From Pseudomonas phage 119X: 43,365 nucleotides of DNA. Every line of letters starts with the position of its first letter. Within the stretch, counting starts at the first letter, position 1. Under the pieces are notes generated by a model. It made no database searches and was not told the DNA's origin. It saw only the letters and a list, made by a program, of their open reading frames with translations. Where the stretch lies: sequence record NC_007807.1, one strand, 5' to 3'. Both the position numbers and the translations under genes were made by a program. Of the stretch, positions 1 through 43,365 are shown piece after piece.

Positions 1-22
1 TAAGTGTATAGTGGTCATATTG

Positions 23-100
23 ATAGGGGGTTAAAAAATTCTTTATTATTAGGGGGTATATAGGGGAATAGAGAATAGGGATTTATAGGGGATAATAATT
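23..100. repeat. Five copies of ATAGGGG(G)/TATAGGGGAATA/TATAGGGGATAATA at irregular 10-27 bp spacing, followed by a G8 homopolymer at 126..133
   Basis: Read directly. Copies at 23..30, 50..57, 62..66, 77..81 and 87..92. The complementary-orientation CTATCCCCC motif occurs twice in the last 35 nt of the window. Confidence 0.7.
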
Positions 101-180
101 ACAGGGTAGTGGACTATTATAAGGAGGGGGGGGCCACCCCTAAACCTACCTCGGCCTACTTTGAGATTGTTTCAGAAAGT

Positions 181-229
181 TTGAAAAAACATTGAAAAAA
201 CCTTGGGCCAAAACCTTGGGCAACCTTGA
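181..229. repeat. Iteron-like direct repeats: TTGAAAAAAC x2 (181..190, 192..201) and ACCTTG(G/A) x3 (201.., 213.., 223..) at 10-13 bp spacing
   Basis: Read directly. ACCTTGG is the reverse complement of the CCAAGGT repeats at the right end, 43207..43277. Confidence 0.7.
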
Positions 230-331
230 CTCCCGATTGCACGTAACCACGGCCAATTTTACGAATAATTCACCAGGGACCATGATTATTAGTCAGGGAC
301 TAGGCCGAGGCTAGACTAAATAAAAGGCAAT

Positions 332-1762: not shown

Positions 1763-1790
1763 ATTCTAGTCCGACTTAGTTAGAAGTCAA
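1763..1790 (-). promoter_or_regulatory. Sigma70-like promoter for the leftward left-arm operon. -35 TTGACT is at plus 1785..1790 and -10 TAGAAT at plus 1763..1768, with a 16-nt spacer.
   Basis: The minus strand reads TTGACTtctaactaagtcggacTAGAAT about 45 nt upstream of the start codon at 1717. Confidence 0.35.
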
Positions 1791-7490: not shown

Positions 7491-8237
7491 ATGAGCTTTA
7501 GTCTTGGCAGTTTCTTCGGTTATGGTCAATCCTCTGCTCCGGCTACCGCTAACAATCAGCAAGGTGCCCAAGGTCAGGGTGGCCAGCAGAGTCCTCAACA
7601 GCAACAGCAGCAACAACAGGCTCAGAATAATCCGGTTCCGGCTACTGGAAGTGAACAAGGAATGGGCGCTGGTCAGAAGTCTGACAAGCCATCGGGGCTT
7701 GACTTGCTTGGGCAACTGTTTCAGAATGACAACCAGCAGGCCGATGGCCAAGCTCCTGCCTTTTCAATTCCCCCTGAAAAACTGACCGAGGCTGCTTCTA
7801 AAATGGACTTCGGTCAGTCCATTCCTCAAGAAGCTTTGCAAAGATTGCAAAGTGGCGACATGAGTGCTCTTCCGGATATCTTGAATAGTTTTGGACGCCA
7901 AGTCTATCAAGTAGCCATGCAGCATAATATGGCCGTCACTGGACAATATTTGAATTCTCGTTTTGATCACGAGAATGGTAAGCTTCGTGGTAGTCTCCGC
8001 CAGGAAGTTATCGGAAGTCAACTTAACGTTTCTGATCTCCCTGGTCCGGCTCAGGCAATGTTCCGCAATATTGCTCAGCAGGCTGCCAGTAAATTCCCCG
8101 ATAAGACTGCTCAAGAGATCGAAAGCTATACCTGGGAAATTTTCCAAGGTATCTCTAATGCTTTCAACCGTGATGCTCAGCGAGCAGAGCAGTCGAAGCC
8201 TCGTCCAATCGATTATGATGAATACTTCTTTAAGTAA
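7491..8237 (+). CDS. Scaffolding-like protein (Q/G-rich, low complexity)
   Basis: 248-aa ORF immediately upstream of the capsid gene. It has a polyQ tract (QQQQQQQQ) and AAGGA RBS. Codon usage is CGT/CTG/GGT-biased like the capsid gene. Confidence 0.4.
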   Translation: MSFSLGSFFGYGQSSAPATANNQQGAQGQGGQQSPQQQQQQQQAQNNPVPATGSEQGMGAGQKSDKPSGLDLLGQLFQNDNQQADGQAPAFSIPPEKLTEAASKMDFGQSIPQEALQRLQSGDMSALPDILNSFGRQVYQVAMQHNMAVTGQYLNSRFDHENGKLRGSLRQEVIGSQLNVSDLPGPAQAMFRNIAQQAASKFPDKTAQEIESYTWEIFQGISNAFNRDAQRAEQSKPRPIDYDEYFFK

Positions 8238-23866: not shown

Positions 23867-23882
23867 TTTTCAGGCATAATAA

Positions 23883-23913
23883 AGCCCCTCTAGTTATCTT
23901 GACTAGAGGGGCT
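23883..23913. terminator. Bidirectional rho-independent terminator between the convergent late (plus) and early/replication (minus) blocks
   Basis: Perfect 12-bp stem AGCCCCTCTAGT/ACTAGAGGGGCT with a 7-nt loop. T-runs lie on both sides: TCTTTTT on plus, TTTATTATG on minus. Confidence 0.7.
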
Positions 23914-23921
23914 TCTTTTTA

Positions 23922-24375
<454 letters not shown>

Positions 24376-24501: not shown

Positions 24502-25017
24502 CTACTGTTGACCTTCCGCAGAATCAATGGAGTCAAACTCTCTTGCTCTGGCTTCAAAGAATTCTTCCTCCTTTTTAACCTGTAGATTCCACCAATCCTC
24601 TCCCATTACTTCCCTGATGTTACTTGTCGTTATCCCTAGAATAGAAATCGCATCCGCAGCAAGTTCCTGCTTGAAAGTCTTATAATCATAGAAAACATCC
24701 CAATGATTCTTCTTAGCATTAAGAGCCTTTCCAAAAGTCTCAAGTCCCAGAGTGAAGCCTAATTGGGCAATAGACTCTTTTCGTTCCTGCCTTCTAAATT
24801 CAACATTATATTTCTGGGCAGCAGCCATAGCTAGAAAGCATAGGGCAGACTCTAAGTTATTATCATGAATTCGGCCGAGTGCTGCATTTACTAGGGTCAA
24901 GTAATCAATCTTATTCCACGGTTCAGGAATATTGTTTCCTCGTTTTAAACCTTTATCAAGCTGTGCCTGAATTACTAGTTTGACGAATGAAGGTAGCTTA
25001 CTGTCGTTATCAATCAT
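24502..25017 (-). CDS. Hypothetical protein
   Basis: 171-aa ORF with an AAGGAG RBS (ggaaggagacagg). Confidence 0.5.
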   Translation of the reverse strand: MIDNDSKLPSFVKLVIQAQLDKGLKRGNNIPEPWNKIDYLTLVNAALGRIHDNNLESALCFLAMAAAQKYNVEFRRQERKESIAQLGFTLGLETFGKALNAKKNHWDVFYDYKTFKQELAADAISILGITTSNIREVMGEDWWNLQVKKEEEFFEARAREFDSIDSAEGQQ

Positions 25018-25056
25018 TTCCTGTCTCCTTCCAGTGGTAACGTATGCTGGGCCACG

Positions 25057-25116
25057 CTAATACAAAGTCTGGTATTGGATTATAGCCGGCGGTTGCATCG
25101 GAATATCCGGAGTCAT
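25057..25116 (-). CDS. Micro-ORF of 19 aa (MTPDIPMQPPAIIQYQTLY) with a perfect Shine-Dalgarno
   Basis: The minus strand reads TAAAGGAGGTGAtgcctaATG. The 10-nt core AAGGAGGTGA is fully complementary to the 16S 3' end at 6-nt spacing. It lies in a 140-nt gap. Confidence 0.3.
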   Translation of the reverse strand: MTPDIPMQPPAIIQYQTLY

Positions 25117-25157
25117 TAGGCATCACCTCCTTTAATCCTTATCCAATGCTAGGCTGT

Positions 25158-25412
25158 TTAATTCAGAGTTCCTTTCTTGGGAAGGTTGACTAATTTCAGA
25201 CTACCTGGCAGCATTCCAAATACTTCTTCATAAGCTCTTACTATTGCTGCTTCTCCACCAATATCTAACTCAGCCTGCTCAAATTCCTTGACAAGCCTGC
25301 CACCGATCCAGAATTCTAGGTTATTGAGCATACGGTCTTTTCTAAGTCCAGTGAACTTCATCTTCCTACAGTCTGCTCTAGACTGCTCTTCTACTGCCAC
25401 CGGCACAAACAT
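25158..25412 (-). CDS. Hypothetical protein
   Basis: 84-aa ORF overlapping the MazG-like gene's end by 22 nt. Confidence 0.4.
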   Translation of the reverse strand: MFVPVAVEEQSRADCRKMKFTGLRKDRMLNNLEFWIGGRLVKEFEQAELDIGGEAAIVRAYEEVFGMLPGSLKLVNLPKKGTLN

Positions 25413-29852: not shown

Positions 29853-29892
29853 CGGCTATACTCCCTTTCCAGAGGTAGTGATCTATAACTAG

Positions 29893-29945
29893 TTAGTCCT
29901 CTCCCAAGCTGCCCAGCCACCCGAAGGTTTAAGGGAGAGGACTAA
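29893..29945 (-). promoter_or_regulatory. Long perfect hairpin: 13-bp stem TTAGTCCTCTCCC/GGGAGAGGACTAA with a 27-nt loop, in the leader of the polymerase gene. No U-tract follows. Candidate RNase III-type processing site or regulatory structure.
   Basis: Perfect 13-bp inverted repeat read directly. It lies between the acidic protein gene and the polymerase gene on the transcribed strand. Confidence 0.45.
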
Positions 29946-29966
29946 GTGCTTATAGCTCTAGGCTAC

Positions 29967-30324: not shown

Positions 30325-30358
30325 TAAAAAAGACCAGTCCTCCTAAGAAGACTGGCCT
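30325..30358 (-). terminator. Rho-independent terminator on the minus strand
   Basis: The minus strand reads GGCCAGUC-uucuuaggag-GACUGGUC followed by UUUUUUAU. It lies 12 nt downstream of the stop of gene 30370..30885. Confidence 0.5.
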
Positions 30359-30912: not shown

Positions 30913-31869
30913 TTACTTCTTTTTAAGTCCCGCCAAGAATGACGGCTTTTCTGCTACAGGTTCAGTAGGCTGTTCAGCTACTTCTTCCGTAGACTCTTCA
31001 TCTTCCCCCGCATTAGGGGAAAAGAATTTCGATTCGATCAAGGCTTTGCCAAGATCAACCTGCCCATTCTGTTTCTCCAGGGCTATCCCAAGTCTGCTAC
31101 CTGCCGGTCCATTTGGAACTGCAATAGGAGTAGACGACGCCCGGTGAGACTTGAGCTTCAATTCCAGCTTGATAAGAGTTCCGAAATACTTACCAAGGTT
31201 CATACTAAAAGCCTTAGTCCCGCACATCGGATAAATCTTATCAGGCTTACCTTCTTCTTCTACTACGACGACGTGAGTAGTGCAAAAGAATTGACAATAC
31301 TTAGCTGCCTGGATAGTTGAGCACAAGTCTGACAACCATTTGCCCATCATCCCGTACTCATCGAAAGTAGGCTTGTATTCTGCTGGCTTGCCTAAGCAGG
31401 CAGCGGCCATTGCTGATGTTCCTACCTGGCTAAGGGAGTCGATTGCAATAGCATCAGAAGAAGTCAGAGTAGACATATCAAAGGTAATGAAAGGATTACC
31501 AGCCTTCAGACAGACAAGGCAGTCTACTTTTCCGTGAGCTTCGCAAATCTTCTTCGGACCTCTAGAGCACAGGCACTTAAGAAGAGTCTCAATAGCTATA
31601 GGCTCTTCCCGAGTATCTGGGATTCTGATTAGAGTTACCTTAGCTACTTCCTCATCGGTAAGCTGACCACTATTATACATCCAGATAATAGTTTCGTAGG
31701 AGTTCTCAACATCGAACAGGAAGAGTCTCTTCACTGCCTTACAACGCAGTATAGTTGCCAGTTGAGTAGTCTTACCAGTCTTAGTCTCACCGTAGATTAA
31801 GAAGCTATGATTTCGATTAGGAACTGAGCCAGCTTTATTTGCAGCCTTGATAACGTCTAAGAGATTCAT
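30913..31869 (-). CDS. Sak4-like / RecA-fold P-loop ATPase
   Basis: N-terminal LIYGETKTGKTT (Walker A) and LFLFDVENS (Walker B). Cys-rich middle segment. Confidence 0.5.
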   Translation of the reverse strand: MNLLDVIKAANKAGSVPNRNHSFLIYGETKTGKTTQLATILRCKAVKRLFLFDVENSYETIIWMYNSGQLTDEEVAKVTLIRIPDTREEPIAIETLLKCLCSRGPKKICEAHGKVDCLVCLKAGNPFITFDMSTLTSSDAIAIDSLSQVGTSAMAAACLGKPAEYKPTFDEYGMMGKWLSDLCSTIQAAKYCQFFCTTHVVVVEEEGKPDKIYPMCGTKAFSMNLGKYFGTLIKLELKLKSHRASSTPIAVPNGPAGSRLGIALEKQNGQVDLGKALIESKFFSPNAGEDEESTEEVAEQPTEPVAEKPSFLAGLKKK

Positions 31870-31911
31870 AATCTAATCCATCTAAAAGCGGGGTTGCTGC
31901 GAATGAGGCCC

Positions 31912-31940
31912 ATCATAAACACCCAATTGCAAAATTGCAA
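31912..31940 (-). promoter_or_regulatory. Sigma70-like promoter, copy A of a three-member family. -35 TTGCAA at plus 31935..31940, 17-nt spacer, -10 TATGAT at plus 31912..31917.
   Basis: The minus strand reads GAAAACCGGGGGTTGCAATTTTGCAATTGGGTGTTTATGAT. The extended motif is shared with the copies at 36616..36644 and 42418..42446. Confidence 0.6.
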
Positions 31941-31959
31941 CCCCCGGTTTTCAAGGATT

Positions 31960-32217
31960 CTATAGGGACTGTCTAAGCTTACCTATATATTCAGCATCCC
32001 CTTCCTCTAACTTCTTGAGGAAGAACTCTGCCTCTGCCCGAGTCTGGAAATAGTCACTATCTCTTGAACCTGGTTCAACCAACCCAGGAAACTCATCCTG
32101 CTCAGAGTTAGTATACAGCGTCCCAATGTAGTAGCCGGCGCCTGATTCTAGGACCTTCAGATCCGAATAGTTAACTTCTTCTTCAGGGCTAATTTGTTTA
32201 ACCAGTTCGCTTCTCAT
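31960..32217 (-). CDS. Hypothetical protein
   Basis: 85-aa ORF. Confidence 0.4.
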   Translation of the reverse strand: MRSELVKQISPEEEVNYSDLKVLESGAGYYIGTLYTNSEQDEFPGLVEPGSRDSDYFQTRAEAEFFLKKLEEGDAEYIGKLRQSL

Positions 32218-36578: not shown

Positions 36579-36615
36579 GGTCTATCCGACTAATTAGAAA
36601 GGGGTCACACATCGC

Positions 36616-36644
36616 ATTATGCGGCTCGATTGCAAAATGTGCAA
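36616..36644 (-). promoter_or_regulatory. Sigma70-like promoter, copy B. -35 TTGCAC at plus 36639..36644, 17-nt spacer, -10 CATAAT at plus 36616..36621.
   Basis: The minus strand reads GGAAAATCGGGGGTTGCACATTTTGCAATCGAGCCGCATAAT. Confidence 0.6.
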
Positions 36645-36675
36645 CCCCCGATTTTCCTTAATCCTACTAGAGAGA

Positions 36676-38276: not shown

Positions 38277-38351
38277 TGCCAGGTGCCTATTGGGTTGAGT
38301 TAAATTAGACTAGCCCCAGACTAATCCAGGGCTAGATCGGCTAAGGAGGAA

Positions 38352-41278: not shown

Positions 41279-42302
41279 TGTTCTTTTCCCTCTTAATCCT
41301 AGCCATCTTTTCCAGGAAAGTCTCTTTAGCCGGCTTGGGCTGGTCTAATTGAATTTGCTGGGGCGCTGGCGCAGAGTCCAAGGAGTCAAAGGCTGAATCA
41401 AAATAGAGTCCCAAGGCTTCTACCTTTTTCCTGGCCTCTAGAACTTCTTCCCGGAAAGAATTGAATTCTTCCAGTTGATTAGGGGTAGTCGCATATTTAC
41501 CTATGCCAGCCAGGAAGCTACCAATTAGGGAATGGGACTGATGAGTAGCCAGAGTTTTATTAAAGGATTTAGCCTTAGCTACCACGGCAGAGGGTAGCCA
41601 TTCTGCTAGACCGCTAAATGAATCTGCTAGGTTAGAATCTAAGCGCTTTGCCTGGCGCTCAGAACTAACAATGGTTATGGGCCGATAATCTTCCTCATCC
41701 TCTGCCTTAATCCATCCATTTTCTTCGGCGTTCTCAGTGAAATAGGTTAGCCGGAAGATTGACTGAACATAAGAATCCCAATCCTCGGTAGTTAGGCCAG
41801 CCTCTTTAACCTTGAGGATTCCGAAGTTAGTTAACTCCTTATAGATTCTGGTTTTGATGAACTTGAGCGCTTTAATTAGTTGATCCTGGGTCCAATCCTT
41901 TTCTATCTCCAATCTGGCCAGATAAGGAGATTTACCATCTAGGTCCAGCTTATTGATTCTGGCTAAGGAGATTAGAAGGGCACCGGATAGAAGTTCAGAG
42001 GAAAGGCTAGTCAGATACCGCCAGTTAATTCCAGTCAAAGGACCAGTCATTAGCTCAGGCAAAGTATCTACTAGGGGATGACGGACAGGCAGATAGCATC
42101 CGTTGGGAAGCGGGGGAAGATTAGAGGCGACCCGAAGGCCGGAGATAGGGCAGATTAATGCTGCGGACTCTGAATAAGATTTAACTTCGCGCTTAGCCAG
42201 AATCCGGCCTTTCTCTTTCAGAGCCATCAATTGAGTAGCCAGGGACTGGCCGGGCTGAGATTGAGGCTTAGAGTAGGAGGTAGTAATCAGCATTGCAGTC
42301 AC
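41271..42302 (-). CDS. Hypothetical early protein
   Basis: 343-aa ORF downstream of promoter copy C. Confidence 0.5.
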   Translation of the reverse strand: MTAMLITTSYSKPQSQPGQSLATQLMALKEKGRILAKREVKSYSESAALICPISGLRVASNLPPLPNGCYLPVRHPLVDTLPELMTGPLTGINWRYLTSLSSELLSGALLISLARINKLDLDGKSPYLARLEIEKDWTQDQLIKALKFIKTRIYKELTNFGILKVKEAGLTTEDWDSYVQSIFRLTYFTENAEENGWIKAEDEEDYRPITIVSSERQAKRLDSNLADSFSGLAEWLPSAVVAKAKSFNKTLATHQSHSLIGSFLAGIGKYATTPNQLEEFNSFREEVLEARKKVEALGLYFDSAFDSLDSAPAPQQIQLDQPKPAKETFLEKMARIKREKNNG

Positions 42303-42417
42303 TCCAGATATAGAGTTAATAATTAATCTCCCTGGAATAGTCCCTGATAGATTCCATCTATTGCCTTGGCTAGGCCTGATAGTCTGGGTCTATAGGGTAG
42401 CTATTCCAGGGAAGTTA

Positions 42418-42446
42418 ATTATGCCGCACGGATTGCCAAATTGCAA
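42418..42446 (-). promoter_or_regulatory. Sigma70-like promoter, copy C. -35 TTGCAA at plus 42441..42446, 17-nt spacer, -10 CATAAT at plus 42418..42423.
   Basis: The minus strand reads CCCCTCTAGTTGCAATTTGGCAATCCGTGCGGCATAAT. Confidence 0.6.
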
Positions 42447-42456
42447 CTAGAGGGGT

Positions 42457-43152: not shown

Positions 43153-43206
43153 AGGTTGGTTTTTGGGTCGGCCATAGTTTGCCGGGGTAGGGAGTCCATT
43201 GTAGGG

Positions 43207-43277
43207 CCAAGGTTAGGTCAAGGTAAATGTCGAGGTTCAGTGAATAAAGGCCAAGGTAGATCAAGGTAGGCCAAGGT
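43207..43277. repeat. Iteron-like array: (C/T)CAAGGT(A/T) x5-6 at 10-13 bp spacing. The three tightest copies, CAAGGTAG, are 10 bp apart at 43251..43280.
   Basis: Read directly. Copies at 43207, 43218, 43231 (CGAGGTT variant), 43251, 43261 and 43271. It is the reverse complement of the ACCTTGG repeats at 199..229. Confidence 0.7.
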
Positions 43278-43283
43278 AGGGAA

Positions 43284-43360
43284 GGGGGTAGGGGTAGGCT
43301 TAGAATAATTCCATCCCCAGGTTAAGACTGCTATCCCCCAGGAAAAGGAGTCTATCCCCC
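43284..43360. repeat. Terminal G-tract then C-tract motifs: GGGGGTAGGGGTAGG, then CATCCCCA, CTATCCCCCA, CTATCCCCCTTATA
   Basis: Read directly. The last 15 nt reverse-complement to TATAAGGGGGATAGA, which closely matches TATAGGGGAATAGAG at 59..73. Confidence 0.6.
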
Positions 43361-43365
43361 TTATA

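Follow-up and report, generated by a model that had tools for sequence, protein, structure and literature searches.

The stretch of DNA analysed here (the window; 43,365 bases) contains three intergenic sites, termed A, B and C, which a preliminary description took for near-identical promoters with a shared operator. The question raised by the locus is whether such sites are functional, which polymerase would read them, and what accounts for the sequence that they have in common beyond the promoter hexamers.

The window resembles 14 records of P. aeruginosa podophages (PaP2, PaMx33/35/41/43/46, TF17, Neko and others), with 94–95% identity across its right-hand 13 kb. These relatives are classified in the Fredfastierviridae, genus Jamesmcgillvirus, and the resemblance places the window as a PaP2/PaMx41/119X-like Pseudomonas aeruginosa podophage of the same genus. 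The structural genes run rightward (~2.1–23.9 kb). The leftward block, which extends from 43.2 down to 23.9 kb, encodes a helicase, nucleases, an AAA_24 ATPase, a family-A DNA polymerase, a primase-like protein and an Acb2 homologue. Intergenic gaps are few in this block, and A, B and C occupy one each. The annotations inspected (12 records of 11 phages) mark ribosome-binding sites and terminators only, with zero promoters. The sole transcription study of the PaMx41 group, by Cruz-Plancarte in 2016, reportedly used northern blots, according to the papers that cite it.

The genome ends, 1..240 (+) and 43153..43365 (-), carry arrays of short repeats that both point inward, with motifs of the CTACCTTGG/ACCTTGAC type and of a G-rich (A)TAGGGG(G) type; the arrays probably represent terminal repeats, packaging sequences or early promoters. 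Small leftward genes at the left end (1717 to 381), whose homologue gp1 is called 'early' in PaMx41, have a promoter-like TTGACT-16-TAGAAT (10 of 12 positions; 1763..1790, -) 46 nt upstream, and a strong terminator hairpin (~335–365) follows them. The region 24900..25300 and 23922..24266 (-), which adjoins an anti-CBASS gene of the Acb2/Tad1 family (PF24729, E=7e-18), is highly divergent, with matches in only 3 of the 14 relatives at ~77% identity, and includes an unannotated 38-aa ORF (25010..25126) with a strong Shine-Dalgarno (SD) sequence. The gap 38277..38351 is hypervariable: 42 of its 75 columns differ among ten genomes, and extra small ORFs are inserted there in PaMx41, PaMx35, TF17 and Neko.

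Architecture and statistical weight of the three sites

Sites A, B and C follow the consensus TTGCA(A/C)-17 nt-(T/C)AT(G/A)AT on the minus strand, on which all the parts of the sites given below lie as well. They are found in the gaps 31870..31959 (A), 36579..36675 (B) and 42303..42456 (C), upstream of and co-oriented with genes that start at 31869, 36578 and 42293/42302, respectively. On re-check, the coordinates given earlier for the three sites, their strand and their 17-nt spacers were all exact. Each site thus presents -35- and -10-like hexamers at the 17 ± 1 bp expected of sigma-70 promoters, with 9 of the 12 consensus bases. No extended -10 (TGn) is found at any of the three, and a sigma-54 reading (GG-N10-GC) was rejected because of a spacing mismatch.

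The -35 of site A (TTGCAA, 31935..31940) is invariant in 12 genomes, and the -10 (TATGAT, 31912..31917) lies 17 nt after it and is followed by GGG; geometry alone predicts a start at ~31905/31904. The spacer contains a second box, TTGCAAT (31926..31932), which repeats the -35 directly with an 8-nt period and is kept partly by orthologues. Upstream, a GAAAACC A-tract that resembles an UP element and the sequence CGGGGGTTGC, the 5' arm of a hairpin, together span 31937..31952. The 3' arm, GCAACCCCG, and a CTTTT T-run (31884..31897) are located downstream of the predicted start.

Site B is built in the same order, with its -35 (TTGCAC) at 36639..36644, its -10 (CATAAT) at 36616..36621 after a 17-nt spacer, and a predicted start at ~36609/36608. 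Its second box, TTGCAAT (36629..36635), has a 9-nt period and ends 7 nt from the -10. The upstream part (36637..36656) consists of a GAAAATC A-tract and the 5' arm GGGGGTTGCACAT, and the downstream part (36596..36612) of the 3' arm ATGTGTGACCCCT, which pairs with three G:U wobbles, and a TTTCT tail. In site C, the -35 (TTGCAA, 42441..42446) and the -10 (CATAAT, 42418..42423) are again 17 nt apart, with a predicted start at ~42411. The second box is degenerate here (TGGCAAT, 42432..42438), and the base that precedes GCAAT is not constant (G to A in PaMx41).

A and B are near-identical from ~-47 to -21, with one base inserted in B (GAAAAYCGGGGGTTGCA(C)ATTTTGCAAT), and thus represent one cassette of ~45 bp that comprises the A-tract, G5, the -35, the TTGCAAT box and the -10. 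Site C has only the core in common with them. The claim of three near-identical sites consequently holds for the pair A and B, but not for C, which scores 8.2 bits in the matrix search described below. The distance from the GCAAT box to the -10 is 8 nt in A and C and 7 nt in B, so that the box floats by 1 nt while the spacing of the hexamers is constant at 17. An 11-mer just 5' of the -35 of site C (CCCCTCTAGTT, 42445..42455, -) is identical to the 5' arm (23885..23895, +) of the bidirectional terminator 23882..23914, which separates the convergent gene blocks; the match may be due to chance or may be the remnant of a terminator half.

The hexamers by themselves prove nothing, since a generic -35/-10 scan of the window returned 33 matches against 36.4 expected and thus no enrichment. 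By contrast, the extended motif is far above chance: the pattern TTGCA-N1-3-TTNGCAAT occurs 3 times against 0.025 expected, a number reached in 0 of 1000 dinucleotide shuffles, and with the -10 added it has zero matches in any shuffle. The sites thereby stand out against shuffled controls, the comparison that had been proposed. Because these extended patterns were drawn up post hoc, from the sites themselves, a position weight matrix built from the sites of relatives only was used as an independent test. Over the whole window and both strands, B (41.3 bits) and A (32.3 bits) are the top two matches, the best shuffle reaching 19.5 bits, and C ranks third without being significant alone.

The matrix search that had been suggested as a way to further copies therefore recovers A and B at the top and nothing beyond them and the looser C on either strand of the window. 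When applied to 910 kb of fetched loci, the matrix matches the orthologous sites and the B copy only, the latter restricted to Jamesmcgillvirus. A scan of IMG/VR with the bare motif gave ~120 single chance matches, and PaP2 was the only phage with two. A candidate fourth site, D (25097..25079, TGCAAC-N7-TATAAT), was rejected, as it has no -35 and falls inside the 38-aa ORF mentioned above, in a region matched by three relatives only at ~77% identity. A tandem TTGCAAAGA-TTGCAAAG at 7836..7852 (+) is found on the late strand inside the ORF 7491..8237, with no -10 at 17 nt, and is probably coding sequence only.

Conservation and the reader of the sites

In an alignment of ten genomes that covers 30.0–43.4 kb, 13.8% of the columns are variable. 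The gap of A has no variable column (0 of 90) and forms part of 31850..31982, the longest run without variation in the region; the gaps of B and C have 5 of 97 and 8 of 154, respectively. The -35, -10 and GCAAT boxes of all three sites show zero substitutions among the close relatives. The substitutions seen affect upstream sequence, spacer bases outside the consensus, or the T-tail of B, which reads TCTCT in three relatives.

Many metagenomic contigs of ~43 kb encode homologues of the AAA_24 ATPase whose gene follows A. All relatives with 44–54% identity in the ATPase and a gap before its gene keep the cassette at this junction (L133, L134, L138, L140, L141/142/145, L143, L144 and L193), as in L193, which reads GAAAAATTTTGGGG TTGCAA ATTTTGCAATCGGCGGG TATAGT GGG. 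Site C has orthologues in L133 (position 349, TTGCAG-17-TATAAT) and L272 (position 6817, TTGCAC-17-TATAAT), and the family set, with these two included, comprises 14 distinct sites. TTGCA, the 17-nt spacer, and A2 and T6 of the -10 are kept in 14 of 14, although this count is inflated somewhat, as part of the set was gathered with patterns that already demanded TTG..A...T. Positions 1, 3 and 4 of the -10 drift freely.

Within the -10, A-11 and T-7 are the bases that sigma-70 specifically reads. The 14 sites, which were partly ascertained on those very bases, retain A-11, T-7 and the TTG of the -35 while the rest drifts, and the hexamers stay 17 nt apart despite a displacement of the inner box by one or two bases. 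That sigma-70 reads precisely the bases that are kept, at a fixed spacing, is the strongest available argument for true promoters of the housekeeping sigma factor. On sequence grounds, A, B and C are real, selected functional elements. Their interpretation as a set of host sigma70-type promoters, put forward in the preliminary description, is borne out by the invariance among close relatives, by the sigma-70 bases of the distant orthologues and by the fixed 17-nt spacing.

Farther relatives have no gap ahead of the ATPase gene and carry plain GGGG+TTGACA-16/17-TAnAAT promoters elsewhere. No relatives of the ATPase locus were found in bacterial genomes, so that neither prophage copies nor host assignments were obtained for the distant relatives. 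A noisy survey of promoter-like sites in 79 helicase loci counted GGG just 5' of the -35 in 30 of 264 'intergenic' matches versus 11 of 439 coding matches. Good TTGACA-17-TAnAAT sites in L275, L276, L278, L280 and L283–L285 often abut a C- or G-run on their 5' side (CCCC TTGACA, GGGGC TTGACA). The same noisy survey suggests that stem arms adjoining the -35 may be common across the wider phage group.

The identity of the polymerase was approached through the proteins of the phage. A DNA polymerase, a helicase and nucleases are recognised, and virion proteins of 1849, 1051 and 577 aa have no Pfam or PDB match. No phage RNA polymerase domain is found in any large ORF, and the DxDxD, NADFDGD and T7-type motifs are absent from the ORFs of at least 340 aa; the earlier statement that the phage has no RNA polymerase gene agrees with this search, in which no such enzyme of the phage's own came to light. 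With no recognisable phage polymerase, the host polymerase with RpoD is most likely what reads A, B and C.

A different specificity would be required if the sites served a cryptic virion RNA polymerase, or a sigma-like or appropriator protein, instead of unmodified host sigma-70. Some 70% of the genes lack an assigned function, neither Pfam nor PDB offers a match for the virion proteins of 1849 and 1051 aa, and the conserved G-run and spacer box are non-standard for sigma-70. The geometry of -35, 17 nt and -10 with invariant A-11 and T-7 is nevertheless a sigma-70 signature, the catalytic motifs listed above are lacking in the ORFs searched, and the farther relatives carry the plain sigma-70 promoters already mentioned. 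A phage-encoded specificity is therefore regarded as very improbable, the least probable of the readings considered here.

The second box bears on a further reading, in which the sigma-70 promoters share an operator, TTGCAA-N2-3-TTGCAAT, and a regulator of the phage or host, bound across the -35 and spacer, controls the three units jointly, as in an early-to-middle switch or a late shut-off. The upstream half-spacer is conserved beyond the known needs of the polymerase, the 14 sites reading A/T,T,T,T,x,A,A,x,T, and orthologous spacers are alike despite the ~50% identity of the flanking proteins. TTGCAA is self-palindromic, so that its repeat is a possible dyad, and the C-type site of L133 displays a matched change (TTGCAG...CTGCAA). 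The putative early promoter at the left end, moreover, is of a different, canonical type (TTGACT-16-TAGAAT, 1790..1763). Against an operator, the box floats 7–9 nt from the -10 and 3–5 nt from the -35, is kept only in part by orthologues (GCAAT, GAAAT, TCAAT, GCGAT, TAAAT), in which it degenerates to xAAT, and is missing in the C-type site of L272. Furthermore, DNA shape and polymerase contacts can explain AT-rich half-spacers and A-tracts, and searches of the early and leftward proteins against Pfam and PHROGs revealed no DNA-binding domain, helix-turn-helix (HTH) or otherwise. A weak HTH match is confined to a 194-aa protein adjoining the large terminase, probably the small terminase. A shared operator is accordingly kept as a possible addition to the promoters, at perhaps a third of the weight given to the preferred reading.

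Hairpins, terminators and proposed transcription units

In A, CGGGGGTTGC (31946..31937) pairs with GCAACCCCG (31897..31889), and CTTTT follows. The corresponding arms of B are GGGGGTTGCACAT (36649..36637) and ATGTGTGACCCCT (36612..36600), the latter of which shares one base with the TTTCT tail (36600..36596). Both stems consist of a G-run and TTGC that pair with GCAA or GUGA and a C-run, followed by the T-run, and enclose the promoter; the upstream A-tract partly mirrors the T-run. This hairpin, the 5' arm of which is formed by G5 and the first bases of the -35, had been missed in the preliminary description. The G5 or C4 tracts noted upstream of the sites are there, but they do not represent one feature: G5 of A and B is a hairpin arm, and most orthologues have a G-run, while C4 of site C lacks a pairing partner like that of G5.

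Complementarity of the flanks exceeds that of shuffles in A (p=0.005), B (p=0.014) and L134 (p=0.002), and is borderline in L193, L138 and L141 (~0.05–0.065). In the same pairwise flank-duplex test, significant pairing was absent in L133, L140, L143 and L144; the hairpin is thus accessory, not obligatory. The arms of orthologues differ and stay complementary, as in L134 (AAAAATTCGGGG/CCCCGAATTTTT) and L141 (GGTGA/TCAC). In arms that do not match perfectly, the transcribed sense strand has G:U pairs at the mismatches, and it folds much better than the antisense strand in B (-18.8 vs -9.6 kcal/mol), L141 (-13.3 vs -6.6) and L193 (-14.6 vs -9.8). The better folding of the sense strand where wobbles occur points to a role at the RNA level. 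The stem of B has a pairing probability of ~1.0 in a 168-nt read-through RNA, and that of A only ~0.1 at equilibrium in a 182-nt read-through context. RNAalifold found no consensus for six cassettes, because the 3' arms lie at unequal distances and are misaligned; the pairwise tests were used for this reason.

The independently annotated records of PaMx41, PaMx46 and PaMx35 place a 57-nt 'terminator' exactly over site B, and no promoter. Neither A nor B was reported by a scan for canonical terminators. Their loops of 39 nt (A) and 27 nt (B) are far above those of typical intrinsic terminators, which have a G+C-rich stem, a 3–8-nt loop and at least five T, and their tails read CTTTT and TTTCT. 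No Rfam family matches anywhere in the window. An outer stem of A (AAUCC/GGAUU) that would sequester the SD of the ATPase gene was seen in the window and dropped, the SD of L193 being outside the paired region.

Site C has a hairpin of another kind. It spans ~104 nt (42319..42422, -), begins inside the -10 and fills the leader of gene 42293/42302. Its folding energy is -46.7 kcal/mol (z = -4.8; 0 of 200 shuffles), and its lower stem is a near-perfect inverted repeat of 21–22 bp. Pairing in the lower stem is kept in 10 relatives with only two wobble-compatible changes; among close relatives no compensatory changes were found, only wobble-compatible or apical ones. The hairpin may serve in RNase III cleavage, mRNA stabilisation or attenuation. 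In the C-type sites of L133 and L272, stems likewise overlap or follow the -10.

Such hairpins raise the possibility that the elements are mainly terminators, RNase III or RNase E sites or stabilising hairpins, and that their likeness to promoters is incidental. Hairpins do overlap A, B and C, the public records give site B only as a terminator, and the hexamers alone are not statistically enriched. Opposed to this are L133, L140 and L144, which have no significant hairpin and still keep TTGCAA-17-xAxxxT exactly. The -10 is located in the hairpin loop, yet its A2 and T6 are invariant while the neighbouring bases vary, and the 17-nt spacing is unaffected by the movement of the inner box. None of these constraints would follow from an RNA structure, and an explanation mainly by RNA structure is hence improbable.

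Plausibly, A, B and C start the transcription units of genes 31869, 36578 and 42293/42302. For the gene downstream of C, the mechanical ORF begins with GTG at 42302 (-); the true start is probably the ATG at 42293, as a GGAG lies 8 nt upstream of it, the PHROG match begins at residue 4 and the annotations of relatives are shorter. The unit begun at A, which contains the ATPase gene and the next one, would end at a strong canonical terminator (30331..30358, -). The unit begun at C would be bounded by a hairpin with a weak T-tail (38310..38335, -), which is a terminator in the PaMx46 record and lies inside the hypervariable gap. The division of the leftward block into sub-operons by the three sites is accordingly plausible as regards the unit starts, but incomplete, as the terminators 38335..38310 and 30358..30331 divide the block as well.

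Directly upstream of the family-A DNA polymerase gene is another hairpin (29853..29966, -), TTAGTCCTCTCCC-N24-GGGAGAGGACTAA. Distant relatives also have a hairpin there, of other sequence (TTGCCC...GGGCAA; L135 4612–4706, L136 5826–5942, L137 11007–11094), and L133 and L134 have a canonical terminator at this position. The structure could be a conserved regulatory or terminator element.

Our preferred reading, to which we assign a probability of roughly three in four, is that A, B and C are host sigma-70/RpoD promoters of three leftward units, and that A and B are composite cassettes of a promoter and a terminator-like hairpin. The three sites would be read by the host enzyme under its housekeeping sigma factor (sigma-70/RpoD), C serving gene 42293/42302 and the helicase genes, B gene 36578 onward, and A the AAA_24 ATPase gene at 31869. 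The predicted lengths of the units are ~4.1 kb (from C to 38310), ~4.7 kb (from B to 31884) and ~1.6 kb (from A to 30331). A and B would be two copies of one composite cassette with the order UP-element-like A-tract, G-run, -35 TTGCA, AT-rich half-spacer with the second TTGCAAT, G-rich half-spacer, -10, C-run and T-run. In the RNA, the G-run and first -35 bases would pair with the C-run region. Because the 5' arm contains the -35, the hairpin would be available only to transcripts that arrive from upstream; these would fold it, followed by the T-run, and be attenuated, terminated or processed. A transcript begun at the internal promoter would lack the 5' arm and read on. Initiation, start sites, terminator activity and timing are all given here as we infer them.

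A bolder extension makes the cassette the site of a putative phage transcription factor, clade-wide in uncultured podophages, in which attenuation of early read-through by the hairpin would be coupled to activated or repressed re-initiation and would time the units for DNA metabolism. We consider this speculative and unlikely; if true, the cassette would be a compact terminator-promoter switch.

Comparison with known systems

Phages of the PaMx41 type serve as models in work on anti-CBASS (Acb2) and are candidates for therapy. With promoters and putative insulating hairpins located, defined units become available for engineering and for RNA-seq time courses, and the cassettes offer promoter/terminator parts that are portable within Pseudomonas. 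That one orthologous promoter is conserved together with its spacer at ~50% protein identity is a clean example of non-coding selection, and a conserved promoter is a concrete place to look for a regulator.

The host-sigma-70 promoters of phages that have no polymerase of their own are alike in their hexamers, 17-nt spacer, intergenic sense position and lack of a phage RNA polymerase gene. They differ in that the -35 here is TTGCAA instead of TTGACA throughout the clade, and in three additions, namely a conserved G-run, the spacer box and a GG(G) that follows the -10.

Two other systems recall the doubled TTGCAA. Lambda CII-type sites consist of a TTGC-N6-TTGC direct repeat that straddles the -35. 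The likeness lies in the TTGC direct repeat at the -35 of a phage promoter; here, however, the repeats are separated by N4 (A, C) or N5 (B), with an 8–9-bp period, no CII-like protein was found and the phage is virulent. The sites have neither the N6 repeat nor the poor -35 and encoded activator of CII-type promoters, and since the -35 itself is good in A, B and C, no activator is required, unlike at the lambda promoters. In T4 middle promoters, the MotA box at -30 replaces the -35. An extra T-rich/TGC box upstream of the -10 at promoters of DNA-metabolism genes is common to both, whereas the present sites retain an intact -35 and have the box at ~-27 to -21; no MotA or AsiA homologue was detected in the window. 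The resemblance to both systems is superficial.

With intrinsic terminators, A and B share a G+C-rich stem followed by a T-run that mirrors an A-tract upstream. They differ by their loops of 27–39 nt, as against 3–8 nt, and by their short T-runs.

A closer counterpart is offered by the PeSLs (promoter-early stem-loops) of T4-like phages, which are composite promoter/terminator cassettes (Arbiol et al. 2010, PMC2839356; Comeau et al. 2014, PMC4122927). Their layout consists of an AT-rich tract, a sigma-70-like promoter, an overlapping polyG/polyC stem with G-T pairs, an SD and an ATG, with a subtype A3-4G3-loop-C3T3-4; the stem-loops terminate, and the promoters are active and strong (PMC2839356, PMC4122927). 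A and B display the same succession, GAAAAYC and G5...C4 with a T-run, then GGAT and ATG. Common to both systems are a poly-G/poly-C stem-loop with G-T pairs that overlaps the promoter and the presence of near-identical copies within a genome. PeSLs, however, occur in dozens of copies, against two near-identical ones and a looser third here, and the stem in A and B encloses the whole promoter (-35 to ~+15) instead of the spacer or -10 alone. The present cassettes, moreover, belong to a small podophage of another phage family. PeSL copies are many and flank ORFan indels in hyperplastic regions, as substrates of recombination; the variable regions of this genome, 38277..38351 and ~24.9–25.3 kb, carry none, and as the copies do not flank these indel hot spots (38.3 kb, ~25 kb), nothing points to their taking part in module shuffling. 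The cassettes represent a familiar type of phage regulatory element with no new mechanism, unsurprising to the specialist, and the PeSL composite cassette appears to be the closest known kind to which A and B can be compared.
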